A DNA stretch of 64,000 nt from positions 3,525-67,524 of the forward strand of contig JABJHR010000015.1 in NCBI GenBank assembly GCA_018661705.1, in the 5' to 3' direction. The stretch's first letter is position 1; each line of letters begins with the position of its first letter. The notes below the pieces were generated by a model, which ran no database searches, was not told the DNA's origin, and saw only the letters and a list, made by a program, of their open reading frames with translations. Positions 7,622-55,998 of this stretch are shown piece after piece. The translations under genes and the position numbers were made by a program. This DNA is from Candidatus Woesearchaeota archaeon. GTDB taxonomy: Archaea > Nanobdellota > Nanobdellia > Woesearchaeales > DSVV01.

Positions 7622-7966
7622 TTAACTTCCAAATCCAATCAAACTAACGCCGGCAATTATTAATAAAACTCCTACCCATTTACCCATATTCATTTTTTCG
7701 TTTAAATACTTTACTGACAATAGGCAGGTCCAAACATAAGATAATGATATAAATGGATAAAGATACGATAAATCTGCAAATTTAAGAGCAAAGATAAATA
7801 TAAGACTTCCAACAAAATATAAGAATAATCCCATGATTAATTGCCAATTTTTCATTAATTCAAGAATATTAAATTTAAATGTGTTTGAACCCTTTTTTAA
7901 TAATAAACTTGCGGTAGCGCCCATGAAAGTTGCAAAGATTGTTAAGGCAATAGCTATTTGGATCAT
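7622..7966 (-). CDS. Small DMT/EamA-like membrane transporter subunit (half-size)
   Basis: Four predicted TM helices. The start is taken at internal Met19, which gives a 4-nt overlap with the upstream paralog. The ORF track extends it to 8020. Confidence 0.45.
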   Translation of the reverse strand: MIQIAIALTIFATFMGATASLLLKKGSNTFKFNILELMKNWQLIMGLFLYFVGSLIFIFALKFADLSYLYPFISLSYVWTCLLSVKYLNEKMNMGKWVGVLLIIAGVSLIGFGS

Positions 7967-8313
7967 GATTTTGCCCCCAATACACCAACACCAATAATTA
8001 TCAATACAATGCCCGCCCATTTAAACGTATTAATTGTTTCACCAAAAACAAAATGTGAAAGTATAACAACTAAAAAATAACCTAATGCAATCATTGGATA
8101 TAATGTTGATAATTCTCCTCGTTGTAACGCTAATATCAATAATAATGCCGCAATTGCATATAAGAATAAACCAATCCATAACGAATAATTAAAAATAAGT
8201 TCTGTACTAAAAACTAAGTTTTGTGATGCTAACTTATAGAATATTTGGGCAATTGAAATGAATAATGTAGAAATTATGACCAGAATTATTGCACTTAATT
8301 TTGTTTTACCCAT
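7963..8313 (-). CDS. Small DMT/EamA-like membrane transporter subunit (half-size)
   Basis: 116 aa with four TM helices. It is a paralog of the adjacent gene, as in paired small multidrug-resistance-type transporters. Confidence 0.45.
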   Translation of the reverse strand: MGKTKLSAIILVIISTLFISIAQIFYKLASQNLVFSTELIFNYSLWIGLFLYAIAALLLILALQRGELSTLYPMIALGYFLVVILSHFVFGETINTFKWAGIVLIIIGVGVLGAKS

Positions 8314-8348
8314 CTTTTTTCCTTAATTAAACTATTGTAATTAATAAT

Positions 8349-10133
8349 TTAATTTTTAAACAAGACTTCAATCATTGCTGCAAACGCAGGTCTTGTTACA
8401 AACACACCAAATGTTACACCTGCTATTGTTGTTAATGCAAAACCCTTTAACAAACCAGCGCCAGCTGTTAATAATGGTAACATTGCAACGACTGTTGTGA
8501 AATAAGCAGCCATGATAATAAAGAATGCCCTTTTTAATTTTTCTTTCCAATTAAGGTAAAGATCTCCTTTACTTTTTAATGTTTCATCTGTTATAACAAT
8601 CTGATCATCTACACCTGTACCAACAGCAACAATTATAGCTGCAATTGCTGCTAAGTCTAATTGCCAATTTACTAATGTTGCAAAGCCCAAGATTAAGGTG
8701 ACTTCTCCAAGCATTGTTATTAGCATAGGCAGAGCAATTTTTACTTTTTTATATCTCATACTTACTACAAAAATAACAGCTAAGATTGCAAATAAACCAA
8801 CTAATAATGCATTGTTTACAAACTCTTTTCCAAGAGCTGGAGAAACAGTATCGATTTTTTCAATATTAAGTTTAACAGGCAAACTTCCAGTGATTAAAAC
8901 AGTTTGCATACTCTTCATATTTTTTACAGTATCAAGCCTTGCTTCTTGTAATGAGTTACCTGCGCCAGGTCCTGAAATTGCAATGTCTGTTTCTGCTTTT
9001 CCTCTAAGGCCTGCGCCAATTCTTAAACTTTCAACTAATTCATCATCTAAGTAAAGATCAATATTTTTACTTAAGAATTTATCTCCGCCTTCTTCAATGA
9101 TTTCAAGATCTTTAGTTGCTTCTGCTTGTCTTTCTGCTGCTTCTATATCTAATGTTACACCAAATGAGAAACTACATTGATAAACACCATCGCCAATTGG
9201 GCCGCAAGGTCTTCTATGATCAATTGGGAAACTACATTGTGGTGTTCTACATACATTTTTAACATCACTGCCGCCTCTGAAAACAGTTGTATTACCAACT
9301 TTTGCTTCAAACTTACCTTGTCTTCCAATTAAATCTTTTACATCATCTTCATTTGCACCAGCAACTTCTACAATAATATATTTATTGCCAGAAATAAAAT
9401 CTCCAGCTTCTTTAACAACAATATCACTTAAGCCATAAACATTTAACCTTTGTTTTAAGTTCGCAATAATAATTTCCATATCATCTTGTGAAACTTCTAT
9501 TTCTGGTTGTAATAATACTCTTGTTCCACCTTCTAAGTCTAAACCCTTTTTCAAGTTTGTTTGAGGTGCGTCATAAACTGTAAATCCTAAATCTTCAACA
9601 CCAATCACTTCTTCTAATGTTTTTGGGACAGTAATGACTTCTTCAATTTCTTTAGTTACAAGCTCAATACTTCCATTTTCTAATGTTTCATTAACTTCGA
9701 TTGTTTTATTTATTCTTATTTCTTCTGTTTCATTTAATTCTGTTATCTTTATTAATGGTTTTACAATTAATGTGTGTTCTTTCTTTTTCTTGAAGAATGA
9801 ATATGATCGCTTATCTCCATTTTTTTCATAATTACTTAGAGTTTCAAGATTAATAATGTCTCCTTCTTCTAAATTTATAATTGTTTTTTCATAATCTTCT
9901 ACATCATTAATTATTTTTCCATTAATTTTAGTAATAACTTCTCTAAACATTGGCTTATCTTTTGGTTCTGGGTTAAAAATTCCAGCTAAATATGCTGCAC
10001 TATCTTTTTCTACACTTCTAATAGCTACTCCCTTTGCCCATGGATTAGGATGGATTGTAATAATTGCAAATATTAATAATATAATTAGAATAATTACTCT
10101 GCCTTTTTTTATAATCTTTTTAAGGTCGCTCAT
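8349..10133 (-). CDS. secD: Protein-export membrane protein SecD
   Basis: 594 aa. An N-terminal TM is followed by a large extracytoplasmic domain and then a C-terminal six-TM bundle (LVGLFAILAVIFVV...). It overlaps the upstream secF by 4 nt. Confidence 0.75.
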   Translation of the reverse strand: MSDLKKIIKKGRVIILIILLIFAIITIHPNPWAKGVAIRSVEKDSAAYLAGIFNPEPKDKPMFREVITKINGKIINDVEDYEKTIINLEEGDIINLETLSNYEKNGDKRSYSFFKKKKEHTLIVKPLIKITELNETEEIRINKTIEVNETLENGSIELVTKEIEEVITVPKTLEEVIGVEDLGFTVYDAPQTNLKKGLDLEGGTRVLLQPEIEVSQDDMEIIIANLKQRLNVYGLSDIVVKEAGDFISGNKYIIVEVAGANEDDVKDLIGRQGKFEAKVGNTTVFRGGSDVKNVCRTPQCSFPIDHRRPCGPIGDGVYQCSFSFGVTLDIEAAERQAEATKDLEIIEEGGDKFLSKNIDLYLDDELVESLRIGAGLRGKAETDIAISGPGAGNSLQEARLDTVKNMKSMQTVLITGSLPVKLNIEKIDTVSPALGKEFVNNALLVGLFAILAVIFVVSMRYKKVKIALPMLITMLGEVTLILGFATLVNWQLDLAAIAAIIVAVGTGVDDQIVITDETLKSKGDLYLNWKEKLKRAFFIIMAAYFTTVVAMLPLLTAGAGLLKGFALTTIAGVTFGVFVTRPAFAAMIEVLFKN

Positions 10134-30226: not shown

Positions 30227-33200
30227 ATGAAAAAAGAGTTTAAGATTATCTTTATTATTTTAATGCTTGTTTTAGCTGTATTTCTAACTGCATGTGATGG
30301 TGATTTAGCAGGGGAAGCACGTAAAGCAATAAAGAGAGTAAAAGGTTTACCAGCATATGATAATGTTAAGATAAAATGTACTGATTCTGATGGTGGAATA
30401 AACCTGAATGAAAAAGGAATTACAAAAGGAATGTATAGGGGCAAATATAAAATAAAAAGAGATGGTTGTAATAAAAGAGGAAAGGTTGTTGAGTATTTTT
30501 GTGATAGAAATAATAAGGTAAAAAGGATTGTTAAGAAATGCCCTAGTGGTGGTAAGTGTTATAAAGGTAGTTGTTTAAAATGTACTGATTCTGATGGTGG
30601 AATAAACCTAGAAGAAAAAGGTGAAACAAAAGGATTAATCTTGATGAAAAATGGAAAAAAGAAACAGGTTACTAAAAATGATTATTGTAAAAGAGGTAAG
30701 TTGAGAGAATACTTTTGTGGTCGCGATAATAAAATTAAATCTAAACTAAAAAGTTGTGATGGTGGTGGGGTTTGTGAATCTGGTGAATGTGTGGGGGGTT
30801 CTTTATGGACGTCTCTAGATGGTCCGCCTGGAGCAGGAAGAATAAGAAAATTAATCCAAAATCCTAACCAGCCTTATGAATTATACACACTTAACCGTCT
30901 AGGAGTTTATAAGTCTGTAAATAAGGGAGAAAACTGGCAATTAATTATTGATTCTAAAAATGTTGAAGTTGAGTCTATTGTTATTTTTGAAGATAAATTG
31001 TTTGTTTCTGGTGATGGTGTTTATTATTTAAATGAAGGTAATAATGATTTAATTAAAATTAATGGTGGTTGGTGGAATGAAATATTTGTAAGTGATAACA
31101 AACTTTTGATTTCTAGAAGAGACGGGGCAATTGAAGACGTTAAACTAATGTATGTAGATTTGGAGAATTCGTATACGGATTTGGATTCTTCCGACTGGAA
31201 TTATATCTCCCCCTCTGTTGAAGAATTAATAGATTTAGAGCCACCAAGTGAGAGCCAATACCAATTTAGTGTAGGAATTCCTCAAGTCTTAGCAATTGAA
31301 AACAGAATTTTTGCTAATGTTATTCTTGAAGTTGATGAAGCAAGCGAGTACACTAATGGTCATTTGTATGTCTCAAAGAATAATGGGGAAACATGGGATA
31401 AAGTTGATCTTGACCTTGATATTCCTCCTAACAAAATTCAGCCAATTATTAGTAATATTATCCAAAATCCTAATAATCCAAACCATATTTTATTGATGTT
31501 AAGGCATCCCATTATTCATGAATATAAATATCCTATTTCTCAATTATTAAGAGAATCTTATGATGGTGGAATAACTTGGCAACCAGTAACAGATTTAGAT
31601 GATATAGAATCTAATGGATTTCTTGGTGGAAGTATAGATGGATTGATTTATTATTTACTGGATGCTTATAGTGGTTTATCTATATTTAAATTAGATGGTT
31701 CTAATCACAAAATAATTGATATGCCAGAAATTGCTGGTCACGAAATGAGATTAGAGGATTTCCTAGTTGATCCTTATGATTCAAATATTGTATATGGAAA
31801 AACTGGACAAATTTGGGAATTTGGTTTAGTTAAGTCAGAAGATAAGATGAAAACTTGGAAAAAAATGGATAAGGATATTACAGCTTCATCACCCACTATT
31901 GTAAAAATTGATCCAACAGATCCAAACACTATTTTTACTTCTTCAAATATTCTTCAGGAAGATTACTACACTAATGACGGTGGGGTTACTTGGAAATATT
32001 TTTCACCCACAGCTTCAGTAGATGAAGTTAGCATTGATCCTCATAACCCTAATAATATTCTCATTGTAGATGAAATGACCCATGTTTTTTCCTCAAAAAA
32101 TGGGGGTCAAAATTTTGAAGAAATTAATTATAATGGATTTTATGGAAATAAAATATTTGATTTTGAAATAACTTCTGGCAATAATAAAAAAATATATGTC
32201 TCAAACTTGGGCACAGGTATTTCACAATCTGATGATTTTTCAGACTACAAAGAATTAGGTCAATGGAGTTGGAGGCATTTAACTAGTTCCTCTGATTATG
32301 CTTATGATATTGAAATTGATCCAGATGACGAGAATATTCTTTATGCCAGTTACTCACCTAAAATATTTGAAAATCATTCTGCAATCTTGAAATATGATCC
32401 TAATGATGATGGCTTTGGTTGGAGTGAAATATTAAAGGTAGAAAAATCAAAAGGAATAACCTCATTAGAATTTGATAAGATTAATTCAAATAATTTTTAT
32501 GCAGGTGTAGTTGGTGAAAAGGGAGTAATTTATCATAGCAATGATAAAGGAGATAGTTGGTCTAATTTAAATGAAGATTTAACTTTCTCAACTATTCATG
32601 CAATTGCTGTTGATCCTAATAATGAAAATGTTGTTTATGCTGCTCCTTGGGGTGGTGGTTTATTTGTTTCTCAAGATAATGGTGATTCTTGGCAAAAGAT
32701 AGAAACTCCAACAATTTCTATCCCTGCAATTATTGTTGATCCTGAATATTCTAATCACTTAATTATTGCAGATAGAACAGCACCTAAAATCTATGAGTCT
32801 TTCAATGCTGGCCAGAACTGGAACGAGCTTGTTAGTTTAGATAAAAGGGATTATTATAGGATTAGTACTATGGTTTTACATAATGGTGAACTTTATTTTA
32901 ATGTATTCAATAAAGTTACTGGTATGATCTCTTTGTTTGTTAATGGTCCTATGTCTGGGACAACATTTAAACTAGATGTTGGCGGAACATCACTTAAAAA
33001 TTCTAATGCTGGTACGCCAGTGGAAATTTCTAATGGTGTTGAGGGCGATATTATCATAAACTTTTTTTCTGATGATAATAATCTTTATTCAATTAGTCAC
33101 ATTTATGGTGTGAATAAATTAGAAGGAAGTAATTGGGTTGATATCTCTCCTGAAGTTAACATGGGTTTTAATAATATTATCTCTGATGGGGATAACAATC

Positions 33201-35020
33201 TTTACATCAGCGGGGCTTCAGATATTGATATGGATTTAAATTTTAGAATTGGTGATCCCAATATTGTTAATAATATCTATAAAAGTACAAATAATGGAGC
33301 AACTTGGGTTCCACTTTTAGAAAACAATCAATTTAATAGTGGAATTAAGAAAGTATTACAACATCCAACTAATAATAATATTCTTTTTGCTGCTACAGGT
33401 ACTGGTTTATATATTTCATTAGATCAAGGAAATAGTTGGGCTTTGCAAAATGGTTTAAACTTTAAGAACATTGGTTCAATGAGTGTTACTAATGATAATG
33501 TTTATGTTGGAACACTTGGTGGTGGTGTTTATGTTGGAAAAATAAAACCAGGTGTTATAATATCAACATTTGATGAGGGTTATGTTGGGAACATAAATCC
33601 AAATTTTTTAGTAACTTGGTCTGCTACCAATGGACCATTTCCAGAGATCTTTAACATTCAGCTAAAAGTTGATCCAACTAATTCAAATATAATTTATGCT
33701 ACTTCATTTCCTGGTGGTGTGTTTAAATCTACAGATGGTGGAATAACATGGATGGAAAGTAATTTTGCCTTGCCAAGTTTTGAAGTTCTAGATCCTTTTA
33801 CACAAGGGTATTATAGTTTAGAAATAGATCCAAATAATTCTGATGTCCTTTATTTAGGTATATTTGGTAAAGGTGTTTACAAATCAGAGGATGGGGCATC
33901 TACTTGGATTCCAATGTATGGTTCCATGGGACAAAATAAAAAAATCATGAAAAAAGGTATTACTCAAATAAAAGTTGATTCCACTGATTCAAACAAAGTA
34001 TACTTAGCAACTAATGACGGTGTTTATATCTCTGATAATGGGGCGGAAAGTTGGGAAGAGATAAATAAAGGTCTACAAACGCCTGATATAAAATCATTAA
34101 GGGTTGTTGATGATATAGTGTATGTTGGAACAGCAGGATATGGTATGTATGTTTTTAATCCAACAGAAGAAGAATGGCAAAATTTAGGAAGGACATTATC
34201 TGGTGGTTGGTGGAAACCATGGGGTAGAAGAATGTATCAATTTTCTACATTGTTATTTGATCCAGATGTGCCAGGTAAAATTTATTTTGGGAATTTCCCG
34301 GGTGGTTTTTATATTAGCGAGGATAATGGTGGTAGTTGGAAAGATTCAAGTATTGGTTTAGGAAATGACGGTGTTTTCTCTTTAAGTGTACAGCCAGATA
34401 ATCATAATATTCTTTGGGCAGGAACATATAATGGTATATCAAAATCAACAGATAAAGGAAAAACGTGGGTTATGAAAGGAAAGAATGGTGTTGAAGATTT
34501 GAAACAGAATGAAGCTTGGGAAGCTTGGGAAAATAATGTTCCTGGAATAATTCCTCCTGAGCAATGGCCCTATAATATTGTTATTGATAATAATGATCTT
34601 GAAATTATGTATATCTCAACAAAAAATGGTAGGAACATGGGGTTCTGTAATAGAAACTGTGAAAAAGAAAATTGTGATGAAAATAATTTTTGTGGGATTG
34701 TTATGAAATCAATAAATGGAGGAGAAAGTTGGTTTGAAATAATGAATGGATTAGATTGGAGCAGTGAATTTTATACTCTTATAATTTATCCGCCTAACCA
34801 TGATGTTTTATTTTTAAGTACTGATTATGGTGTTTTTCTAAGTATGGACGCAGGAAGTAATTGGGAGTCCATGGATGATGGATTACCAACTAAAAATAAT
34901 AATGTAAGAGATAATGTGGCAGATAATTTGGCTCTGAGCGTAGATAATCAATATTTATTCTTAGGCCTTGTAAAATATGGTGTTTGGAAAGCAGATTTAA
35001 GTAAGTTGGATTTATCCTAA
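30227..35020 (+). CDS. Giant secreted BNR/Asp-box repeat lipoprotein (multi-beta-propeller, sortilin/Ycf48-like) with duplicated N-terminal Cys-rich module
   Basis: Signal peptide with lipobox LTAC. Two tandem copies of the six-Cys module (CTDSDGGIN...EYFC...C..G.C). About 18 S-x-D-x-G-x-[ST]-W BNR repeats (STDGGITW, SNDKGDSW, SQDNGDSW, STDKGKTW, SINGGESW and others) spread over about 1400 aa. Confidence 0.8.
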   Translation: MKKEFKIIFIILMLVLAVFLTACDGDLAGEARKAIKRVKGLPAYDNVKIKCTDSDGGINLNEKGITKGMYRGKYKIKRDGCNKRGKVVEYFCDRNNKVKRIVKKCPSGGKCYKGSCLKCTDSDGGINLEEKGETKGLILMKNGKKKQVTKNDYCKRGKLREYFCGRDNKIKSKLKSCDGGGVCESGECVGGSLWTSLDGPPGAGRIRKLIQNPNQPYELYTLNRLGVYKSVNKGENWQLIIDSKNVEVESIVIFEDKLFVSGDGVYYLNEGNNDLIKINGGWWNEIFVSDNKLLISRRDGAIEDVKLMYVDLENSYTDLDSSDWNYISPSVEELIDLEPPSESQYQFSVGIPQVLAIENRIFANVILEVDEASEYTNGHLYVSKNNGETWDKVDLDLDIPPNKIQPIISNIIQNPNNPNHILLMLRHPIIHEYKYPISQLLRESYDGGITWQPVTDLDDIESNGFLGGSIDGLIYYLLDAYSGLSIFKLDGSNHKIIDMPEIAGHEMRLEDFLVDPYDSNIVYGKTGQIWEFGLVKSEDKMKTWKKMDKDITASSPTIVKIDPTDPNTIFTSSNILQEDYYTNDGGVTWKYFSPTASVDEVSIDPHNPNNILIVDEMTHVFSSKNGGQNFEEINYNGFYGNKIFDFEITSGNNKKIYVSNLGTGISQSDDFSDYKELGQWSWRHLTSSSDYAYDIEIDPDDENILYASYSPKIFENHSAILKYDPNDDGFGWSEILKVEKSKGITSLEFDKINSNNFYAGVVGEKGVIYHSNDKGDSWSNLNEDLTFSTIHAIAVDPNNENVVYAAPWGGGLFVSQDNGDSWQKIETPTISIPAIIVDPEYSNHLIIADRTAPKIYESFNAGQNWNELVSLDKRDYYRISTMVLHNGELYFNVFNKVTGMISLFVNGPMSGTTFKLDVGGTSLKNSNAGTPVEISNGVEGDIIINFFSDDNNLYSISHIYGVNKLEGSNWVDISPEVNMGFNNIISDGDNNLYISGASDIDMDLNFRIGDPNIVNNIYKSTNNGATWVPLLENNQFNSGIKKVLQHPTNNNILFAATGTGLYISLDQGNSWALQNGLNFKNIGSMSVTNDNVYVGTLGGGVYVGKIKPGVIISTFDEGYVGNINPNFLVTWSATNGPFPEIFNIQLKVDPTNSNIIYATSFPGGVFKSTDGGITWMESNFALPSFEVLDPFTQGYYSLEIDPNNSDVLYLGIFGKGVYKSEDGASTWIPMYGSMGQNKKIMKKGITQIKVDSTDSNKVYLATNDGVYISDNGAESWEEINKGLQTPDIKSLRVVDDIVYVGTAGYGMYVFNPTEEEWQNLGRTLSGGWWKPWGRRMYQFSTLLFDPDVPGKIYFGNFPGGFYISEDNGGSWKDSSIGLGNDGVFSLSVQPDNHNILWAGTYNGISKSTDKGKTWVMKGKNGVEDLKQNEAWEAWENNVPGIIPPEQWPYNIVIDNNDLEIMYISTKNGRNMGFCNRNCEKENCDENNFCGIVMKSINGGESWFEIMNGLDWSSEFYTLIIYPPNHDVLFLSTDYGVFLSMDAGSNWESMDDGLPTKNNNVRDNVADNLALSVDNQYLFLGLVKYGVWKADLSKLDLS

Positions 35021-37268: not shown

Positions 37269-38171
37269 CTATGATTTCAATTGTTTATTAATTTCAGCTT
37301 TTATAACTTTGTAAGGCTGTGCCCCTTGAAGTACTTCCCCATTAATTATTAATGTTGGGGTAAACTTAACTCCATTTGCTTTACCTTCTGTTATATCTTT
37401 ATCAACTTCTTCAGATTTTTCATGATTTGTTAAGCATTCCACAAATAAATCATAATCATCAAAATCCATTAACTCTGCCATATCTAATAAATCTTGTTCT
37501 GTTTCTTTTGGCAAATCACTGAAATATAACGCGTTATGAAATTCAATAAATCTATTTTGATCGTTTGCACATTCTGAAGCTTCTGCAGCAAGCTTAGACA
37601 GTGGATGTAATTCTTCGTTTGGAAATTGTTTATGATATATTAGAATTTTATTTCCAAAATCTTTTTTAATGTCTTTTAGTGTAACTTGCATCTCTGCGCA
37701 GTATTCACAATAAAAGTCAGAATACTCATAAATTGTTACTGTTTTTGTAATTGGAGTAACTGGTTGTGTATACTTATAAACAAAAAATAAAACCATCACA
37801 ATAATTACTAATAATATTAAATAACTCCAAAAGCTACCTTCTTTTTTTCCATTTTTTCCATTTTTTCCCATTACTATCACCCTTGTGTCTTCTTCACCTT
37901 TTTGTTTTTTAGGTGTAAGATTTTTTTTAGAATTTTTTTTAATTGTTTTTTTATCTGCCTCTTTTGGATCTACTTTTGCAGGTTTATTTATTATATCTTT
38001 AACTGCTTTTTTCTTTTTTTCCTCTTCTTTAATTTTTTTATCAACCACTTTTAGTTTTTCTTCAATCTTTTTTTTACCTTTTATATACTCCTCTTTTTTT
38101 ACAATGCCTGCTCTATAAGTTTTTTCAAAATGATCTAATTGTTTTTTTAACCGCTTTTTTTCGTTTTTCAT
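37269..38171 (-). CDS. Membrane-anchored DsbA/thioredoxin-like oxidoreductase with K-rich N-terminal region
   Basis: CEYC redox motif, a single TM (LILLVIIVMVLFFVY) and a lysine-rich coiled N-terminus. Confidence 0.55.
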   Translation of the reverse strand: MKNEKKRLKKQLDHFEKTYRAGIVKKEEYIKGKKKIEEKLKVVDKKIKEEEKKKKAVKDIINKPAKVDPKEADKKTIKKNSKKNLTPKKQKGEEDTRVIVMGKNGKNGKKEGSFWSYLILLVIIVMVLFFVYKYTQPVTPITKTVTIYEYSDFYCEYCAEMQVTLKDIKKDFGNKILIYHKQFPNEELHPLSKLAAEASECANDQNRFIEFHNALYFSDLPKETEQDLLDMAELMDFDDYDLFVECLTNHEKSEEVDKDITEGKANGVKFTPTLIINGEVLQGAQPYKVIKAEINKQLKS

Positions 38172-41899: not shown

Positions 41900-43459
41900 T
41901 TATACCTCTGCTGTTTCTAGTGGCTCTTCTATTGCTGGTGTTGTTTCTCCAGATACTTCTTCTAATAATTCGTCAATTACTTTTCTAAACTCTGTATCTT
42001 CTGCTACTAAATCACCTTCTACTTCATAGCCATTTCCAAGTCTATGGTATCTGCAACCAAAAACAAAACTAGGGACACCACCATAAGAATTGAATTTACT
42101 AAAGATTGCTTCATGTTCTTGAGGAATTGTTTTTTCTATTTCTTCTGTTATTGTGTTATCTTTTGTATCAAATTCCCAATGATAAGCTTCAATCTTTCCT
42201 TGTTCTACATATTCTTTAACAACACCATCGTATGTTGCCTTAATCCATTTACAGTGTGGGCAAGTTGTAGTTGAAAACATAAATACTAATGGTTTTCCAT
42301 CTTCAGACAAACAAAGATCTCCTTCTGCAATTGAAAATGTTCCAATTCCTTTCTCAGCAAGTTCTGTGTTTTCTTCTACGTTATCAATGGAGTTAACATA
42401 TACAACTTTTGCTTTTGTTTTTAGATCTTCAATATATGTTCCAACTTCTGTTTGTAAGGCTGTATTTGTGACTGATTCAATTATATCATTTTTTAAGTCT
42501 TCTAATGTTGATTTTTTCTCTGCTACTTTAATTACATGGTAACCAAAGCTAGTTTTTACTGCTTCAGAAACTTCATCAACATTAAGATCAAATGCAGTAT
42601 TTTCAAATTCAGGAACCATCATACCTCTGCCGAACCATCCTAAATCTCCGCCCATTGGAGCAGAAGGCCCATCAGAATATTCTTTTGCTAATTCTGCAAA
42701 ATCATCTCCTGCTTTTGCTTTTCCAATAACTTCTTCAATTATTGTTAAAGCTTCTTCTTCTGTTCTTTCTTTTTCACAGGTATCGATGCCTTCATAACAA
42801 ACTAAAATATGTGATGCTTTTACAGAAGTTAATGTGTCTTTATTTGCATCGTAATATGCTTTAATTTCTTCTTCTGTTGGTTCTTGTCCACCAAGTTCAG
42901 ATTCAATTAATTTGTTAAGTAGTAATTGTTCTCTATAATTTGCAACTAATTCATCATAAGTTAAGCCTTCTTCTGCTAATCTTACTTTAAATTCTTCTTC
43001 AGTAATGCCCATTTGCAAATATAATTCTTCTATTTTTGCTACAACTTCTGAACTACTAACTTCTAATTCTAATTCTGTTGCTTTTTGTACTAATAATTCT
43101 TTAACAATCATTTGTTCAAGAATATTTTCTTTAAATTCAGTTGTTTCTGCAGCTTGTTTATAATATTCTGGTAGTTTTGCTATTTCTGCATTTAAATCAT
43201 CAACTGTTATTTCCTTTCCATCAACTGTTACAAGGAGATTAGCATCAACTTGGTCTGGCTTTGGTAAAAGTTTGCCCATGTTTACTATGAAAATACCAAT
43301 TGCAATTATTGCAACAACAGAAAGAACAATTGTCCAAATGTTTGATTTTTCATCTTTTTCTTTAGAAGAAACATGATGTTGGTGAGTTTTTGTTTTGTGC
43401 GTGTGCTGTGTTTTGTGGTTTTCTACTTTTTTATTATTTTTTTCTGTCAAGAATATCAT
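41900..43459 (-). CDS. Membrane-anchored parvulin-type peptidyl-prolyl isomerase fused to a C-terminal thioredoxin-like domain
   Basis: An N-terminal TM and a SurA-like helical region. A parvulin domain (KASHILV...GGDLGWF...GYHVIKV) is followed by a thioredoxin-like domain with a CPHC motif. Confidence 0.6.
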   Translation of the reverse strand: MIFLTEKNNKKVENHKTQHTHKTKTHQHHVSSKEKDEKSNIWTIVLSVVAIIAIGIFIVNMGKLLPKPDQVDANLLVTVDGKEITVDDLNAEIAKLPEYYKQAAETTEFKENILEQMIVKELLVQKATELELEVSSSEVVAKIEELYLQMGITEEEFKVRLAEEGLTYDELVANYREQLLLNKLIESELGGQEPTEEEIKAYYDANKDTLTSVKASHILVCYEGIDTCEKERTEEEALTIIEEVIGKAKAGDDFAELAKEYSDGPSAPMGGDLGWFGRGMMVPEFENTAFDLNVDEVSEAVKTSFGYHVIKVAEKKSTLEDLKNDIIESVTNTALQTEVGTYIEDLKTKAKVVYVNSIDNVEENTELAEKGIGTFSIAEGDLCLSEDGKPLVFMFSTTTCPHCKWIKATYDGVVKEYVEQGKIEAYHWEFDTKDNTITEEIEKTIPQEHEAIFSKFNSYGGVPSFVFGCRYHRLGNGYEVEGDLVAEDTEFRKVIDELLEEVSGETTPAIEEPLETAEV

Positions 43460-44162: not shown

Positions 44163-44504
44163 ATGACGGGGACAATGGGTGTGCATCTACTGGCAAATAT
44201 TTTTGGTTGTCCAGTTGAGGTTTTAAATTATGAAGCAGATGTGGCTAGGCTTCTTAATGAAGTTGTTGTTGATGCTAAATTAACTAAAGTTAGTGAAAGT
44301 CATTTTCAATTTGATCCTGTCGGTGTTACTTCAGTTATTTTATTAGCAGAGTCTCATATTAGCATTCATACTTGGCCAGAGCACGGAAGTGCTGCCGTTG
44401 ATATTTTCTGTTGTAGCGGTGAAGAAGCTGCAAATCGTGCATTTAAGGCTTTGCTTGAACGGTTTAAACCCGAAAAACATGATTGTCAGATTATCAAGAG
44501 ATGA
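44163..44504 (+). CDS. speH: S-adenosylmethionine decarboxylase proenzyme (SpeH family), paralog 2
   Basis: LAESHISIHTWPE and FCCSGE motifs, colinear with the upstream paralog. Confidence 0.8.
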   Translation: MTGTMGVHLLANIFGCPVEVLNYEADVARLLNEVVVDAKLTKVSESHFQFDPVGVTSVILLAESHISIHTWPEHGSAAVDIFCCSGEEAANRAFKALLERFKPEKHDCQIIKR

Positions 44505-44858
44505 CCTATAGTTTGAAGTTAGTAGTCTTAAGTTAATGGTTCTAAATTAGTGGTTTTAAGTTCGGAATTCTCTGTTGGGTTTTACATTCTCCAGTGATTA
44601 CCATTCAAAAACTATATGTTGCATAACAAAAATATTTATATATCAGAAGAAATTAAAATTATCAGGCATCTTGTGGTGGCTTACTTCTCACTACACAATA
44701 TGTTGTGTTTGTTGTTTTGTGTTATGACAATTGTGAAGTTTGCCAAGTCGAGTAATTAAAACTCATGATGATGTAATTTTTTAAATTTGAATTATCCAAA
44801 ATTAAAAAATTTGAAGAGATGTCAAGAACCACCATATTATTGTATGATGGAATTTTAA

Positions 44859-47333
44859 ATGTTTAAAAAGGGTGTTAACATGGAAGGAACTGTTGGAGAA
44901 ATATTACATATTAAAAAAAGAGACGGAGATTTAATGAATTTTGATCTTTCAAAGATTGCTGCTGCTATTTTTAGGGCAGCTAAAGAAGTTGGCGGTACAG
45001 ATCCAACGTTAGCAGATGAACTTGCAAAGGAAGTTTATTCTCATCTTAAAACAAAGGGGTTTCCAAATAATGCTCCTACAGTAGAAGAAATTCAGGATTC
45101 TATAGAAAAAGTTTTAATTGAAAAAGGGCATGCTCAAACTGCAAAAGCATTTATTCTTTATAGAGTTAAAAGGAAAAAACTTAGAGACGCAAAAACAGCA
45201 ATTGGTGTTAAAGATGATATCAAAATGACACTAAATGCCGTAAAAGTTCTAGAACGAAGATATTTACTTAAGGATAAGGATGGTAGAGTTATTGAAACTT
45301 GTGGTCAAATGTTTAGAAGGGTTGCTAGTTTTATTGCAGAAGCTGATAGAAATTATGGAGCGTCAGAAGAAAATGTAAAAGCTTGTGAAGGAGAATTTTA
45401 TGATTTAATGACAAAACTTGAGTTTTTACCAAATAGTCCTACATTTACTGGTGCAAATACTAAAGTTGGGCAATTAAGCGCTTGTTTTGTATTACCTATT
45501 GGGGATTCAATGGAAGAAATCTTTGAAGCAATTAAACAAACTGCATTAATTCACAAAAGTGGTGGTGGTACAGGATTTAGTTTTTCTCGTCTAAGACCTC
45601 ATAATGATCGTGTTTTATCTACAAAAGGGGTGGCATCTGGTCCTGTATCTTTTATGGCTGTGTTTGATGCTGCAACAGAAACAGTAAAACAAGGTGGTAC
45701 AAGAAGAGGAGCAAACATGGGGATCTTGAGAATTGATCATCCAGACATAATGGATTTTATTACAGCAAAAGAAAAAACAAATAGATTAAACAATTTTAAT
45801 ATTTCTATTGCCATTACAGATAAATTCATGGATGCTTTAGAAAAAGATGAAGAATATGAGTTGTTAAGTCCTAGAGATCAAACTGTGATAGATAAACTTA
45901 AAGCAAAAAATGTGTTTGAATTAATTGTAACTAAGGCTTGGGAAAATGGAGAACCAGGGATTATTTTTATTGATAAAATAAACAAATATAATCCTACTCC
46001 AGAAGTTGCTGAGATTGAAAGTACAAATCCTTGTGGAGAACAACCATTATTGCCTTTTGAGTCTTGTAATTTAGGTTCTATTAACCTTTCTACTACTCTT
46101 AAAGAAGAGAATGGAGAAACAAAAGTAGATTATGATAAACTTAAAAGAATTATTTATTCTGCAGTACATTTTCTTGATAATGTAATTGATATGAATAAAT
46201 TTCCTTTACTTCAAATTGAAGAAATGACTAGAGCTAATAGAAAAATAGGTCTTGGTGTTATGGGATTTGCTAACATGTTGTTAAGGTTGGGTGTTCGTTA
46301 TAATTCTGATGAAGGAATTAAAATTGCAGAAGAAGTTATGGGATTTGTTGATAGAGAATCAAAAAAAGCATCTCAGGAATTAGCTAAGAAAAGAGGGCCT
46401 TTCCCAAATTATAGTAAAAGTATTTACAAAGATGGGGAATTAATGAGAAATGCAACTACAACAACAATTGCTCCAACAGGGACATTAAGTATTCTTGCTA
46501 ATTGTTCTAGTGGTGTTGAACCATTATTTGCAATTTCTTACATTAGAAATATTATGGATAATACTGAACTTGTTGAAACAAACCCGGTGTTTTTAGATGT
46601 TGCAAAGAAAGAAGGTTTTTATTCTGAAGAATTACTAAAAAAAGTGGCAATGCAAGGTAGTATTCAAAATATGGAAGAAATTCCTGAAGAAATTAGAAAG
46701 CCGTTTGTAATTTCACACGACATTTCACCTGTTTGGCACACTAGGATGCAAGCTGCTTTCCAAAAGCATGTTGATAATGCAGTTTCAAAAACAGTTAATT
46801 TCCCAAATTCTGCAACAATTGAAGAAGTAAGAGAAGTTTATTTATTAGCTTACAAACTTGGTTGTAAAGGAGTAACTGTTTATAGGGATGGTAGTAGAGA
46901 TGAACAAGTTTTGAATATTGGTGTTGTTAATAAAGGAGATAAATCTAACCCTGTTGTTAAAGAAATAACTCCGGAAGTTATTCCAACTATAATACAAGAA
47001 ACAACAAATGATACTAGTGAAGTTAAAGAAGCAACAATTGATCCGACAGTTTCAAATGATCCTAACATTGTTGCAAATCTTCAAGCACAATCAACAGGAA
47101 ATGTCATTGATTCAAACATAACAGATTCAAATGTAATTCCTCCAACTGTAAATGTTTCAAACATAACAGCTAGTTCGGTAGCGGTTGATGCAACTAAAGA
47201 AGCTATTCTTAAGGCACAAGAAGCATTGCCAGACAAGAAAAAAATATACTGTCCAGAATGCAATGAAAAACTTACACAACAAGAAGGGTGTGTGATTTGT
47301 CCTAATTGTAGTTTTTCAGCCTGTCATATGTGA
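44859..47333 (+). CDS. nrdJ: Class II (adenosylcobalamin-dependent) ribonucleotide reductase NrdJ, with C-terminal low-complexity linker and zinc ribbon
   Basis: ATP cone (KRDGDLMNFDLSKI), catalytic-site Cys/Asn/Glu region (NPCGEQPLLPFESCNLGSINL), and C-terminal CPECN...CVICPNC. The probable true start is Met8 (44880). Confidence 0.85.
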   Translation: MFKKGVNMEGTVGEILHIKKRDGDLMNFDLSKIAAAIFRAAKEVGGTDPTLADELAKEVYSHLKTKGFPNNAPTVEEIQDSIEKVLIEKGHAQTAKAFILYRVKRKKLRDAKTAIGVKDDIKMTLNAVKVLERRYLLKDKDGRVIETCGQMFRRVASFIAEADRNYGASEENVKACEGEFYDLMTKLEFLPNSPTFTGANTKVGQLSACFVLPIGDSMEEIFEAIKQTALIHKSGGGTGFSFSRLRPHNDRVLSTKGVASGPVSFMAVFDAATETVKQGGTRRGANMGILRIDHPDIMDFITAKEKTNRLNNFNISIAITDKFMDALEKDEEYELLSPRDQTVIDKLKAKNVFELIVTKAWENGEPGIIFIDKINKYNPTPEVAEIESTNPCGEQPLLPFESCNLGSINLSTTLKEENGETKVDYDKLKRIIYSAVHFLDNVIDMNKFPLLQIEEMTRANRKIGLGVMGFANMLLRLGVRYNSDEGIKIAEEVMGFVDRESKKASQELAKKRGPFPNYSKSIYKDGELMRNATTTTIAPTGTLSILANCSSGVEPLFAISYIRNIMDNTELVETNPVFLDVAKKEGFYSEELLKKVAMQGSIQNMEEIPEEIRKPFVISHDISPVWHTRMQAAFQKHVDNAVSKTVNFPNSATIEEVREVYLLAYKLGCKGVTVYRDGSRDEQVLNIGVVNKGDKSNPVVKEITPEVIPTIIQETTNDTSEVKEATIDPTVSNDPNIVANLQAQSTGNVIDSNITDSNVIPPTVNVSNITASSVAVDATKEAILKAQEALPDKKKIYCPECNEKLTQQEGCVICPNCSFSACHM

Positions 47334-47343
47334 TTATAATAAG

Positions 47344-47416
47344 TTTGGAAGGTTATGGGTTTGGAAGGTTTGGAAGGATTTTATCTTCCTAACTTTCTAT
47401 ACTTTCCTAACCTTCA
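47344..47416. repeat. Family C repeat: a GGTTTGGAAGG tandem array opposed to an AACCTTC/CTTCCTAAC array, copy C1
   Basis: tttggaaggttatgggtttggaaggtttggaagga...tcttcctaactttctatactttcctaaccttc forms an imperfect hairpin built from roughly 10-bp units. Confidence 0.45.
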
Positions 47417-47432
47417 ATACATTTAAAAGAAA

Positions 47433-48077
47433 ATGGTACCAAGAAAATTTGGTTTTGTACATGTTTACACTGGTGATGGTAAAGGGAAAACTACTGCGGC
47501 TATGGGATTAGCATTGAGAGCAATTGGTCAAGGATTTAAGGTTTTTATTATCCAATTTCTTAAAGGTGGAGCGTATACTGGAGAATTTATCTCTATGAAG
47601 AATTTTCTCCCTAAAGAAAATAAAGAAATTGTACAATTTGGAGAAGGATGTGTTAAGGAACTTAAACAATTCAAATTACAAGGTTTTCAAAAAGGAGCAC
47701 GAAAAGAAAATTGTGAATATTTTGATTATATCAGAGAAGATATTGAATGTGGGAATTGTCGTGAATGTTTTTTAGATGATGAAAAACAAAAAAAATCATC
47801 GCGAGAAGCATTTGCTCTTGCAAGCGATATTCTTAGTAGTGAAAAATATGATCTTGTGGTATTAGATGAAATTAATAATGCAATAAGTCATAAATACATT
47901 TCAGTTAATGAAGTAATTGAATTAATTCAAAAAAAAGCACCGCGGATAGAATTGGTTTTAACTGGAAGGTGTGCACCACCAGAAATTATTCAGGTGGCAG
48001 ATTTAGTAACAGAAATGAAATGTATTAAACATTACTATGAAAATGGTGTGTTTGCAAGGAGAGGAATTGAATATTAA
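47433..48077 (+). CDS. cobO: Corrinoid adenosyltransferase (CobO/CobA-like)
   Basis: P-loop HVYTGDGKGKTTAA, conserved FIIQFLKGG and VLDEIN motifs, and a size of about 214 aa. Confidence 0.75.
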   Translation: MVPRKFGFVHVYTGDGKGKTTAAMGLALRAIGQGFKVFIIQFLKGGAYTGEFISMKNFLPKENKEIVQFGEGCVKELKQFKLQGFQKGARKENCEYFDYIREDIECGNCRECFLDDEKQKKSSREAFALASDILSSEKYDLVVLDEINNAISHKYISVNEVIELIQKKAPRIELVLTGRCAPPEIIQVADLVTEMKCIKHYYENGVFARRGIEY

Positions 48078-48256
48078 CAAAAATTTAAGGCAAAGTTAAG
48101 TCATCAACAATATTGCTTCGCTTCAATATGATAGACAACAAAGTATGTTAAAGCATTAAATTGTGAAAATGACAACTAATCGGTAAACACAATTAACTTA
48201 ACATTGCCAAAATTTAAAAATACTTAAGTATACCTTAAGTATATGGGGGACTTTAA

Positions 48257-50350
48257 ATGCCTGTTTTAAAGGTTAGTAAAAGAGACGGAAGCCTAGTTGT
48301 TTTTAATAAAGAAAAAATATCTGGTGCTATTTTCAATGCAGCGTATGCAGTAGGAGGCTCTGATAAAGATAGGGCTGATCACCTAGCAGATATTGTTGTT
48401 AAGAAAGTTAATGAAAAATATGGGGATGAAGTTCCAACGGTAGAAGATATTCAAGATTTAGTTGAAAGAGTTTTAATTGAAGAACATCATATTAAAACTG
48501 CTAAAGCATATATCCTATATCGTGAAAAAAAGACAAGATTAAGAGAACTAAAAAAATCCTTGGTTGGAACTTTTGTAGCTAAGAAACTTAGTTATAATGC
48601 ATTAAAAATATTGAAAGAAAGATATTTGATGAAGGATGAAAATGGAGCAATTGCTGAAACCCCTTTGGGTATGTTTCGTAGAGTAGCACATAATGTTGCA
48701 AAAGCAGATAAGATTTATAACGATTTTGATCCAAAAAAATCAGAAGAGATTTTTAATGAAGCAATGGATAATCTTTATTTCTTACCAAATTCTCCTACCT
48801 TAATGAATGCAGGAACACAAATGCAACAACTTAGTGCATGTTTTGTTCTTCCAATTGAAGATTCTATTGAGAGTATTTACATGGCACTGAGAAATGCTGC
48901 CATTATCCATCAAAGTGGTGGTGGAACAGGATTTAGTTTTTCTGGTTTAAGACCAAAAGGAGACATTATTGGTTCAACAAGAGGACCTAGTTCTGGGCCA
49001 AAATCCTTTATTGAATTGTTTGATAAGTCAACAGAAATAATAAAAAAAGGTGGTAGAAGAAGGGGCGCAAATATGGGTGTTCTTAGAGTTGATCATCCTG
49101 ATGTTTTAGATTTTATCAATGCAAAAGAAAATACAGAAGTATTAACAAATTTTAATCTTTCAGTTGGATTAACAAGTAAATTTATTCAGGCACTAAAGAG
49201 AGATAACATGTATGATCTTATTAACCCTAAAACGGGAGAGGTAGTTCGTAAATTACCTGCGAGGGAAGTTTTTGATTTAATTGCAACCATGGCTTGGAAA
49301 AATGGTGAACCAGGAATACTTTTCTTAGATACTATTAATAAAGAAAATCCCTTGGCAAGTTTGGGAGAGATAAAAACAACAAATCCTTGTGGAGAAGTTC
49401 CTTTGTTACCCTATGAATCATGTAATTTAGGATCTATTAACTTATATCACATGGTTGAAGGAAAAGAAGTTGATTATGAAAAGCTAAGAAAAACAGTTTG
49501 GTTAGCGATACATTTTCTTGATAATGTTATTGAAATGAATAAATACCCACTTAAAGAAATTGAAACTATTACTAAAGCAAATAGGAAGATTGGGCTTGGT
49601 GTAATGGGTTTTTCAGATATGCTTTATAGGTTAGGAATTAAATATGATAGCGAGGAGGGTTTAAAGTTTGCTGAAAAATTAATTGGATTTATTTATGAAG
49701 AAGCAAAAAAAGCATCAATAGAACTTGCAAAGCGAAGAGGAGTTTTTACAAATTGGAAAAAAAGTAAATATGTCGAAGAAGGAATTAAACTAAGAAATGG
49801 AACACTTCTTTCAATTGCACCAACCGGAACATTAAGTATGATTGCAGATTGTAGTGGTAGTATTGAACCAAATTTTGCCTTGTCTTACATTAAACGAGTT
49901 ATGGGTGGAGAAGAATTTTTATTTGTGAACAAACATTTTGCAGATGTTGCCAGAGAAAGAGGATTTTATTCAGAGGAATTAATGAAAAAAATTGCAAATA
50001 AAGGATCAATACAAAGTTTTAGGGAAATTCCTAAAGATGTTAGAGATGTTTTTGTTACTAGTCACGATATTTCTGCAGAATATCATGTTAGAATGCAGGC
50101 TGCATTTCAGAAACATGTTGATAATGCAGTTTCTAAAAGTGTAAATCTAAGATATACTGCACAAAAAGACGATATGGCTAACATTTTTAAATTAGCACAT
50201 GAGTTGGGTTGTAAAGGAATTACTGTATATAGGGATGGTAGTAGAGATAATCAAGTTTTGAATGTTGAGTATGATAAAAATTTATCACAAAAGCAAGAAA
50301 GAAGAATTGTTAAAAAACGTAGAGTTCCTAATAAATGTGAAACTTGTTGA
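48257..50350 (+). CDS. nrdJ: Class II (adenosylcobalamin-dependent) ribonucleotide reductase NrdJ, second paralog
   Basis: ATP cone (SKRDGSLVVFNKEKI), NPCGEVPLLPYESCNLGSINL, and a C-terminal CETC tail. It is colinear with the upstream nrdJ. Confidence 0.85.
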   Translation: MPVLKVSKRDGSLVVFNKEKISGAIFNAAYAVGGSDKDRADHLADIVVKKVNEKYGDEVPTVEDIQDLVERVLIEEHHIKTAKAYILYREKKTRLRELKKSLVGTFVAKKLSYNALKILKERYLMKDENGAIAETPLGMFRRVAHNVAKADKIYNDFDPKKSEEIFNEAMDNLYFLPNSPTLMNAGTQMQQLSACFVLPIEDSIESIYMALRNAAIIHQSGGGTGFSFSGLRPKGDIIGSTRGPSSGPKSFIELFDKSTEIIKKGGRRRGANMGVLRVDHPDVLDFINAKENTEVLTNFNLSVGLTSKFIQALKRDNMYDLINPKTGEVVRKLPAREVFDLIATMAWKNGEPGILFLDTINKENPLASLGEIKTTNPCGEVPLLPYESCNLGSINLYHMVEGKEVDYEKLRKTVWLAIHFLDNVIEMNKYPLKEIETITKANRKIGLGVMGFSDMLYRLGIKYDSEEGLKFAEKLIGFIYEEAKKASIELAKRRGVFTNWKKSKYVEEGIKLRNGTLLSIAPTGTLSMIADCSGSIEPNFALSYIKRVMGGEEFLFVNKHFADVARERGFYSEELMKKIANKGSIQSFREIPKDVRDVFVTSHDISAEYHVRMQAAFQKHVDNAVSKSVNLRYTAQKDDMANIFKLAHELGCKGITVYRDGSRDNQVLNVEYDKNLSQKQERRIVKKRRVPNKCETC

Positions 50351-50547
50351 TTTTCTTTCTGAGTTGTTTGTTCTGTTTTTTCTTAAAATACGTTTTTTTT
50401 TAATTTATACAGTATATTTATAGGGTCTAATCTGTTTGTTTAGAGTGATTTTAGGAGTATTTTTATAAGAAACTATATAAACAAGATATTATCTATATAT
50501 TAAGTTATATTAGTTAGTAGAATATATGTTAGATAGGTGTTAAAAAG

Positions 50548-51000
50548 ATGACAAACCCAGGTGAAAGTCCAGGTGGAAACGCCGGTGGTGGCTTTGGATC
50601 GAGCATTGGTGGATTATTTTCCCAAAAGAAATCTCCACAACAGCAAGTAGATTTAGAACTTGGTGGTGTTGTAAGGGATGTAACTAGGAGATTAAAGGTT
50701 TTAGAAGAAAGGCTTACAACAGATCGGAAAAATATTCAATTAAATCAACAAAATGTTCTTGCAGCTAGTAAAAAAGTTAATGTTGAAATTAAGAATACTT
50801 ATCTTGAAATTAATGAATTAAAGAAAGAATTATCTCTTATTAAAGAGCAAATTGCTATGCTGATGACTGCTTTGAAAGAAACAGCAAGTAAAGAAGATGT
50901 AAAAACAATGGAAAAATATGTTGATCTTTGGGAACCATTAAATTTTGTTACAAAAAGAGAAGTGGAATCTTTAATTAGAAGAATTATTAACGAGAAATAG
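50548..51000 (+). CDS. Hypothetical coiled-coil protein with Gly-rich N-terminus
   Basis: 150 aa. An N-terminal G/S-rich segment is followed by heptad-like coiled coil. Confidence 0.4.
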   Translation: MTNPGESPGGNAGGGFGSSIGGLFSQKKSPQQQVDLELGGVVRDVTRRLKVLEERLTTDRKNIQLNQQNVLAASKKVNVEIKNTYLEINELKKELSLIKEQIAMLMTALKETASKEDVKTMEKYVDLWEPLNFVTKREVESLIRRIINEK

Positions 51001-51034: not shown

Positions 51035-51778
51035 ATGGGATTTTTGAATAATATCATTGGAAAACCTTCAGGGCCTGGAGAACCTGCGCCAGCAACAAAA
51101 GTAGAAATGAAAGGCCCACCTACTGACAGAGTCATTGCAATGAGACAGCATGGCTTAAGTAATAATCAAATTATTCAGGCACTTCAAAATGAAGGCCATA
51201 ATTCAACTGAGATTTTGGATGCAATAAATCAAGCTGATTTAAAAGGAGGTGTTGAAATGTCACCAAATCAATCAGGACAACCTGTACCAGCACAAATGCC
51301 GGGACAACCGTCACAACCACCACAACAACCACCAGGAGCTTCTCCTGCGCAAGGCCCAGGACCAATGAGTCCACCAGGACAGCCTTTACCGCCAGGATTT
51401 GGTTCGCCTGCACCAGCAATGGGACAGGAAGCTAGAGAAGAGGGTCCAGCACTAGAAAGAATTGAAGAACTAGCAGAAGCTATTATTGATGAAAAGTGGA
51501 ATGAGATTGTCAAGAGCATTAATAAAATTGCTGAGTGGAAAGAACGGACAGATGCAAAAATTACTCAAATGGAACAAAAGTTTGAGGATTTAAAGCATAA
51601 TTTTGATACTTTACACAAAGGTGTCTTAGGGAAAATAGGAGACTATGACAGTACATTAACAAATATCAGTTCAGAAATTAAGGCAATGGATAAAGTGTTT
51701 CAAAAAGTATTGCCTGTTATGACAGAAAATGTTAATGAGCTTAGTAGGATAACACAAGACATGAAGAAAAAAGCTTAA
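51035..51778 (+). CDS. Hypothetical protein with small helical N-domain, P/Q-rich linker and C-terminal coiled coil
   Basis: A P/Q/G-rich linker (QPVPAQMPGQPSQPPQQPPGASPAQGPGPMSPPGQP) sits between an N-terminal module of about 70 aa and a helical region of about 110 aa. Confidence 0.4.
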   Translation: MGFLNNIIGKPSGPGEPAPATKVEMKGPPTDRVIAMRQHGLSNNQIIQALQNEGHNSTEILDAINQADLKGGVEMSPNQSGQPVPAQMPGQPSQPPQQPPGASPAQGPGPMSPPGQPLPPGFGSPAPAMGQEAREEGPALERIEELAEAIIDEKWNEIVKSINKIAEWKERTDAKITQMEQKFEDLKHNFDTLHKGVLGKIGDYDSTLTNISSEIKAMDKVFQKVLPVMTENVNELSRITQDMKKKA

Positions 51779-55740: not shown

Positions 55741-55761
55741 AATTACACCTCACTATTAAAA

Positions 55762-55847
55762 GTTTGAAAGGTTTGGAGGGTTTGAAGGGTTTGGAAGGTT
55801 TTAATAAACCTTTTTAACCTTTCATACCATTAGAACCTTTATAATCC
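55762..55847. repeat. Family C repeat: a GTTTGRARGG tandem array opposed to an AACCTTT array, copy C2
   Basis: gtttgaaaggtttggagggtttgaagggtttggaaggtttt...aaacctttttaacctttcataccattagaacctttataatcc. Confidence 0.45.
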
Positions 55848-55998
55848 TTTTATTTTCTGTTACTATAACTATAATATCTGCTTATTATATCTATTAATAT
55901 ATAAACTTTATTGTAATGTAGACGAGAAATTTGGAAATTAATTGTTGACTGGTGACGAAAAAGGGTTTTTTGTATGTTTGTTTAGATGTTTTAAAATT

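Follow-up and report, generated by a model that had tools for sequence, protein, structure and literature searches.

We analysed a window of 64 kb (64,000 nucleotides of contig JABJHR010000015.1 from the Candidatus Woesearchaeota assembly GCA_018661705.1) and in it a cluster of three intact, co-oriented genes: a ribonucleotide reductase (RNR) gene, nrdJ1 (44859..47333, 824 aa), a corrinoid adenosyltransferase gene, cobO (47433..48077, 214 aa), and a second reductase gene, nrdJ2 (48257..50350, 697 aa). All three open reading frames are on the + strand, as are all features below unless stated otherwise, and they match the positions and shared orientation given in the initial annotation of this DNA. 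nrdJ1 probably starts at the ATG at 44880 and not at 44859, giving a protein of 817 aa, which is also the length of the NCBI call; this ATG is preceded, 8 nt upstream, by a GGGTG motif, and the orthologs start with ME..GEIL. Proteins identical to those of the window are found on other Candidatus Woesearchaeota contigs (e.g. in GCA_018698995.1), with CobO itself entered in 80 blocks of the sequence collection, indicating that the locus is not an assembly artefact. The GC content is ~30% across the whole window. Spacers of 354, 99 and 179 nt lie before nrdJ1, between nrdJ1 and cobO, and between cobO and nrdJ2. The first and last of these had been described as long AT-rich leaders, and their lengths are real, but neither length nor composition is unusual for the window: the median spacer is 191 nt, other spacers are as long as 349-392 nt, and the GC fractions of 0.28 (354 nt) and 0.27 (179 nt) compare with a spacer mean of 0.26. 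The term leader also does not fit, as the nrdJ1 spacer contains a promoter and an operator and the TATA box of nrdJ2 is only ~40 nt from its ATG.

NrdJ1 and NrdJ2 have the same domain order, an ATP-cone followed by the RNR all-alpha domain (PF00317, 80 and 86 bits, respectively) and the RNR barrel (PF02867, 462 and 454 bits). Both score far above the cut-off of 400 for the class II equivalog TIGR02504 (732 and 706 bits), whereas the class I model TIGR02506 gives half of the class II score and barely exceeds its cut-off of 341 (355 and 362 bits), and class III models match only the ATP-cone in both proteins. NrdJ1 also passes NF006417 (1043 bits, cut-off 961), and its best match among solved structures is the Thermotoga maritima NrdJ (1xje, E-value 4e-129). 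Profile analysis thus classifies both copies as class II RNRs, as first annotated, of the dimeric NrdJ type and with a predicted dependence on adenosylcobalamin (AdoCbl), and neither as class I or class III. Alignment of 188 homologs shows the catalytic set (in order, redox Cys, Asn, thiyl Cys, Glu and second redox Cys) preserved as C209, N390, C392, E394 and C403 in NrdJ1 and as C195, N376, C378, E380 and C389 in NrdJ2, equivalent to C134, N320, C322, E324 and C333 in T. maritima. With radical-site and redox cysteines in place, neither copy has the make-up of a pseudo-enzyme. T. maritima NrdJ (1xje, 3o0o) shares the barrel and the LSAC...NPCGE...CNLGS motifs with the window proteins, and it has a C-terminal cysteine-rich domain, cleaved off before crystallisation, of the sort found in NrdJ1. 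Unlike the T. maritima enzyme, both window proteins start with an ATP-cone, the linker of NrdJ1 is a low-complexity sequence specific to the lineage, and NrdJ2 does not have the cysteine-rich domain.

The same nrdJ1-cobO-nrdJ2 order is present in three diverged relatives (loci L040, L041 and L042), whose core sequences are 74-77% identical to NrdJ1 and 70-72% identical to NrdJ2. A looser version is seen in L043, where an intein-bearing nrdJ and cobO are followed by an opposed AAA gene, a short nrdJ and dcd; this short nrdJ is the sister of the NrdJ2 clade. The intein-bearing gene of L043 (1655-5902) encodes 1415 aa with intein and LAGLIDADG domains. In L044, L045 and L046, nrdJ and cobO are adjacent, in the latter two as nrdR-nrdJ-cobO, and L046 is from a genome named Woesearchaeota. 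The initial proposal of a cofactor-activation gene linked to the reductases is therefore borne out, as the nrdJ-cobO linkage is kept in seven other archaeal loci, eight with the window; this adjacency also lends indirect support to the predicted AdoCbl dependence of the reductases. The cluster is an ordinary arrangement of known parts conserved in relatives and not a new kind of system.

The two paralogs are 55% identical to each other over 675 residues, and each resembles other archaeal NrdJ proteins more than it resembles its neighbour, with median identities of 62% for NrdJ1 and 58% for NrdJ2 over 666 core columns. In a neighbour-joining tree of corrected p-distances, each paralog and its orthologs form a clade in 100/100 bootstraps and the two clades are exclusive sisters in 0/100. 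These comparisons assign the pair an old, separate ancestry and contradict a recent tandem duplication, a possibility that the initial annotation had put forward for a phylogeny to settle.

The two reductases differ in their C-terminal tails. NrdJ1 extends ~137 residues beyond the barrel, in a V/N/I/T/S-rich sequence that ends in YCPECNEKLTQQEGCVICPNCSFSAC. Its low-complexity linker (46920..47228, about residues 688-790) differs in length and sequence between orthologs, whose tails are 92-144 aa, while most other archaeal relatives have merely ~20-45 aa ahead of the cysteine array. The array itself (47250..47324; C798, C801, C811, C814, C817 and C822) has the spacing C-x2-C-x9-C-x2-C-x2-C-x4-C, nearly identical to the C-x2-C-x9-C-x2-C-x2-C-x5-C of Stackebrandtia nassauensis NrdJd, formed by C920, C923, C933, C936, C939 and C945 (Loderer et al. 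2017, PMC5704485). In that enzyme the array binds zinc and supplies the active site with electrons, across subunits as well, and neither thioredoxin nor glutaredoxin reduces the protein (PMC5704485). We thus identify the NrdJ1 tail, initially noted as an extra low-complexity tail of about 130 aa with a zinc ribbon, as the known six-cysteine zinc-finger domain, which occurs in ~70% of non-monomeric class II enzymes (PMC5704485) and for which zinc binding is predicted here.

NrdJ2 has a tail of only 34 aa that ends in ...IVKKRRVPNKCETC and does not contain the six-cysteine array. Its terminal CETC (50336..50347; C694 and C697), which the initial annotation had also picked out, follows a basic IVKKRRV motif and is common to the NrdJ2 orthologs of L040, L041 and P0003. 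This CxxC resembles the C-terminal cysteine pair of class I enzymes, and a class-I-like function is plausible. A difference in reductant coupling between NrdJ1 and NrdJ2, as was first suggested, may follow from such tails, and a pair of copies with and without the zinc-finger domain has precedent, as two-NrdJ genomes in which only one copy carries it are recorded for Frankia and some Alphaproteobacteria (PMC5704485). Unlike the S. nassauensis NrdJd case, the domain-free NrdJ2 ends in a CxxC of its own, cobO lies between the two genes, and the window proteins fall in a clade of archaea and the candidate phyla radiation, outside NrdJd. Tails in this wider clade are very diverse and include zinc fingers with short linkers, CxxC, GGCxxC, fused thioredoxin domains, or none. 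Pfam searches with the isolated tails and with the CobO insert described below gave just weak, generic zinc-ribbon matches, all below cut-off. Elsewhere the window encodes a fusion of SurA-N, parvulin peptidyl-prolyl isomerase and thioredoxin-like domains with an N-terminal hydrophobic segment (41900-43459, - strand) and a DsbA-like protein (37269-38171, - strand); both look extracytoplasmic and so are unlikely to be RNR reductants.

CobO matches the full PF02572 CobA/CobO/BtuR profile with 197 bits and contains the P-loop GDGKGKTT, in line with the initial call of a corrinoid adenosyltransferase, and we assign the middle gene to the CobA-type ATP:co(I)rrinoid adenosyltransferases. It falls slightly short of two NCBIfam equivalogs, TIGR00708 (160.9 bits, cut-off 167.75) and NF004637 (180.3 bits, cut-off 185), and this shortfall coincides with an insert bearing four cysteines (47643..47780, residues 71-116; C73, C106, C109 and C112). 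The Salmonella enterica CobA structures (4hut, 1g5r) align with CobO residues 5-51 and 133-214 only, sharing the P-loop GxGKGKTT and the C-terminal DLVTEM..KH....G..A..GIEY core, whereas residues ~52-132, within which the insert sits, cannot be aligned. The Salmonella segment that matches the unaligned stretch presumably includes F91 and W93, the residues by which the lower corrinoid ligand is displaced. All four cysteines, and also R110, F113 and D116, are unchanged in 120/120 homologs that are 55-100% identical to CobO, mostly named Woesearchaeota or Nanoarchaeota. The insert is missing from bacterial CobO relatives of ~40% identity, which were all that a scan of species-representative genomes yielded; the species of the window was not among its matches, and the scan provided nothing on synteny. 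The G-x-x-C...C-x2-C-x2-C pattern, in a short or long form, is present in 12 of the best 150 of 7,518 family representatives, indicating that the Cys4 variant extends beyond the lineage of the window. L041 has a second cobO directly after nrdJ2 (7869-8486), which is 40% identical to the cobO of the module and has no insert.

It is a reasonable guess from the conserved cysteines that the CobO insert forms a metal site. AlphaFold2 predicts the core of CobO with confidence and the insert with a predicted local distance difference test score of 44-63, so no metal-site geometry could be argued. A tentative and rather unlikely extension of this idea is that C73 and C106-x2-C109-x2-C112 bind an iron-sulfur cluster that donates the electron for the reduction of Co(II) to Co(I), which would make CobO a self-reducing, flavodoxin-free adenosyltransferase. 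If true, such an enzyme would suit a reduced genome that activates scavenged B12 for its sole route to DNA precursors. In the literature searched we found no description of the Cys4 variant or of a CobA with an iron-sulfur cluster.

The spacer upstream of nrdJ1 contains an archaeal TATA box, TTTATATA (44635..44642), and 18 nt downstream of it the first of two boxes that resemble the operator of the repressor NrdR, a feature the initial annotation missed. In NrdR sites, a linker of 15-16 bp separates two boxes of 16 bp each, with C4, A6, A8, T9, T11 and G13 as the highly conserved box positions, and NrdR is present in 22% of archaeal genomes (PMC13584703). The literature searched gave nothing on NrdR in Woesearchaeota. 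Box 2, ACACAATATGTTGTGT (44693..44708), matches the consensus ACACWANATNTWGTGT exactly, holds 6/6 of the key positions and is the only match to this consensus in 64 kb, with 0.00 expected from 100 shuffles. Box 1, ATCAGGCATCTTGTGG (44661..44676), has a degenerate left half, and some bases of its right half (A, T, T, G, T) are the same in 8/8 aligned loci. In the four loci with the nrdJ1-cobO-nrdJ2 order, the boxes lie exactly 16 bp apart. Upstream of nrdJ, all eight loci have the same layout of TATA box, 17-20 nt, box 1, 15 or 16 bp and box 2, embedded in flanks that cannot be aligned; the TATA box, TTTATATA or TTTAAATA, is at the same place and clear in 7/8 loci, with the L046 row less clear. 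In L045 and L046, where the boxes lie upstream of nrdR-nrdJ-cobO, both boxes hold 6/6 key positions, and a gene for NrdR, a protein made of a zinc ribbon and an ATP-cone, adjoins nrdJ in L045, L046 and L047. We dropped a loose scoring of the six box positions because it is non-specific in AT-rich DNA, and used the full consensus and conservation across loci instead.

A close known parallel is nrdRJ of Streptomyces coelicolor, in which a class II RNR is under an NrdR double operator of the same geometry as proposed here, with boxes that overlap the transcription start, and the nrdR-nrdJ gene order is shared by the relatives L045 and L046. Unlike the S. coelicolor system, the window has an archaeal TATA promoter, no adjacent nrdR, a degenerate box 1 and a second nrdJ beyond the reach of the operator. 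We also looked in the spacers for known RNAs such as a riboswitch: a scan of the whole window with Rfam at the gathering threshold matched only a signal recognition particle RNA, and relaxing the threshold over 44400-50650 added nothing but sub-threshold noise. The predicted fold of the nrdJ1 leader is no better than that of shuffled sequence (z-score -0.95). A TrmB-family gene lies just upstream of the box-bearing nrdJ promoter in L043 (474-1289) and in L044 (744-1481). In the distal part of the nrdJ1 spacer of the window, right after the neighbouring decarboxylase gene, is a 14-nt tandem repeat, GTTTTAAGTTAGTG, in 3.7 copies (44511-44562).

Between nrdJ1 and cobO is a stem-loop formed by GTTTGGAAGG repeats and their complement (47343..47420; -30.8 kcal/mol, z-score -4.2). 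Comparable hairpins are found between these genes in L042 (z-score -4.6) and L040 (z-score -3.75) and are absent in L041. The GTTTGGAAGG motif, with one mismatch allowed, occurs 11 times in the window against 3.98 expected, a number reached in no shuffle, and a second stem-loop of this type lies downstream of pgk (55758-55850); these stem-loops may represent a terminator or a repeat element specific to the lineage. After cobO, there is an inverted repeat in the spacer of the window, and a hairpin with a T run in L040, both in keeping with an end of transcription behind cobO. nrdJ2 then has a TATA box of its own, TTTAAAAATA (48213..48222), 35-44 nt upstream of its ATG, and TTTAAATA or TTTATATA is found 35-70 nt upstream of nrdJ2 in L040, L041 and L042. 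There is no NrdR box pair in the cobO-nrdJ2 spacer. Between the TATA box and the start codon of nrdJ2 is a direct repeat of CTTAAGTATA in two copies (48223-48243), each with a CTTAAG palindrome, which could be the site of a different regulator; by eye, we see none in L040-L042. A T-rich stretch with oligo-T runs directly follows nrdJ2 (50351..50410) and is probably an archaeal terminator.

The reading that we favour, with a probability of roughly two in three, is that the locus is a conserved Woesearchaeota deoxyribonucleotide module made of two transcription units, the first under NrdR-type control. Unit 1 would comprise the TATA box, the NrdR-type double operator, nrdJ1, the stem-loop and cobO. 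The active-site disulfide of NrdJ1 would be re-reduced via its own six-cysteine zinc-finger tail, and CobO would adenosylate salvaged corrinoid to supply AdoCbl to both reductases. An ATP/dATP-sensing repressor of the NrdR type, encoded outside the window, would bind the two boxes, and because these overlap the expected transcription start, binding would switch unit 1 off when deoxyribonucleoside triphosphates are plentiful. Unit 2 would consist of nrdJ2 behind its own TATA box, encoding an anciently diverged, catalytically competent class II reductase. With no zinc-finger domain and a class-I-like CxxC, NrdJ2 probably takes its electrons from a thioredoxin-like reductant, and with a TATA box of its own the gene probably escapes NrdR control.

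Several points weigh against this reading. Box 1 of the window holds only 4/6 key positions (A8, T9, T11 and G13) and is degenerate in this lineage, and loose scoring of the six positions gives 10-36 chance box pairs per 64 kb. A search of the window by phmmer with an E. coli NrdR sequence, and with an ATP-cone hidden Markov model built from 202 NrdJ N-termini, found no nrdR and no additional ATP-cone open reading frame, matching only the two NrdJs; since no nrdR lies in the window, we infer NrdR control of this locus rather than show it. Read-through from cobO into nrdJ2 may occur. The tree that separates the paralogs is a distance tree rather than a maximum likelihood tree. The physiological reductant of zinc-finger-type enzymes is not established even for the model enzyme (PMC5704485). 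Finally, the NrdJ2 orthologs of L042 and P0006 keep the basic motif and have no terminal Cys pair, which indicates that the CxxC is not essential across the clade. In these same two proteins (11283-13355 in L042) a Ser replaces the catalytic Asn, with the three catalytic Cys and the Glu kept, and the two changes together may reflect relaxed or altered function in this sub-lineage.

The tails allow a different view of the pair, in which the zinc-finger tail of NrdJ1 re-reduces NrdJ2 in trans within a mixed oligomer, making the two proteins interdependent rather than independent isozymes. Electron transfer between subunits by this domain is possible (Loderer et al., PMC5704485), and in the subclass NrdJd domain-free copies are found solely in genomes that also have a copy with the domain (PMC5704485). 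In addition, every nrdJ2-type gene that we have seen adjoins an nrdJ1-type gene, and the two orthologs with no terminal Cys pair retain their catalytic cysteines. However, NrdJ2 of the window and three of its orthologs retain a terminal CETC of their own, a mixed dimer interface is not assured between paralogs of such limited identity, and the different promoters favour separate expression of nrdJ1 and nrdJ2. We consider this arrangement rather unlikely.

A second alternative concerns the boxes, which might be the site of another regulator, for example a TrmB-family protein of the kind encoded next to nrdJ in L043 and L044, or an element of a leader RNA. The lack of nrdR in the window would fit such a view, as would the TTGTG, CACAA and TTGTG segments, which from their sequence could pair alternatively as RNA. 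Against this, the box sequence, the 16-bp box length and the 15-16-bp linker fully match the published NrdR site, and in L045 and L046 nrdR itself is directly preceded by the best box pairs, as is typical of autoregulation. The spacer gave no Rfam match and, as noted above, is no more stable than its shuffled versions, and we regard this alternative as distinctly unlikely. That nrdJ2 is a recent, simply redundant tandem duplicate or a decaying pseudo-enzyme, as two co-oriented neighbours of identical domain order might suggest, is highly improbable and already contradicted by the limited mutual identity and separate clades of the paralogs, by the intact ATP-cone and five catalytic residues, and by the retention of orthologs of both in four diverged genomes.

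The initial annotation stands in its observation and its main interpretation. Besides the operator, the analysis adds to it that the paralogs have separate ancestries, that they are apparently transcribed under different control and that CobO has a Cys4 insert; the classification of the genes is unchanged. A small-genome archaeon that probably does not synthesise B12 would here keep the only DNA-precursor route we see through a linkage of cofactor and enzyme, using two anciently separated isozymes with different electron-entry tails. The locus offers a natural archaeal test case for the reductant of zinc-finger-type enzymes and for the co-occurrence of copies with and without the domain, and it illustrates cleanly how a bacterial-type NrdR operator can be combined with an archaeal TATA promoter.

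Directly upstream of nrdJ1 are two tandem genes of the S-adenosylmethionine decarboxylase family (PF02675; 43738-44088 and 44163-44504, encoding 116 and 113 aa), and a tandem PF02675 pair is likewise found in L001 and L042. Crenarchaeal arginine decarboxylase evolved from the S-adenosylmethionine decarboxylase family, and one of the two copies might have a different substrate. Downstream of nrdJ2 are two genes for coiled-coil proteins with no Pfam family (50548-51000 and 51035-51778), the second with a P/Q/G-rich low-complexity centre; both also follow nrdJ2 in L001 and L002. No tRNA genes were found in the 64 kb. The signal recognition particle RNA, the sole above-threshold Rfam match of the window, is of the archaeal type (1676-1950, - strand; 133 bits, E-value 4e-30). 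The gene at 30227-35020 encodes a large protein of 1597 aa that contains BNR/Asp-box and Sortilin-Vps10 repeats and is probably located at the cell surface.

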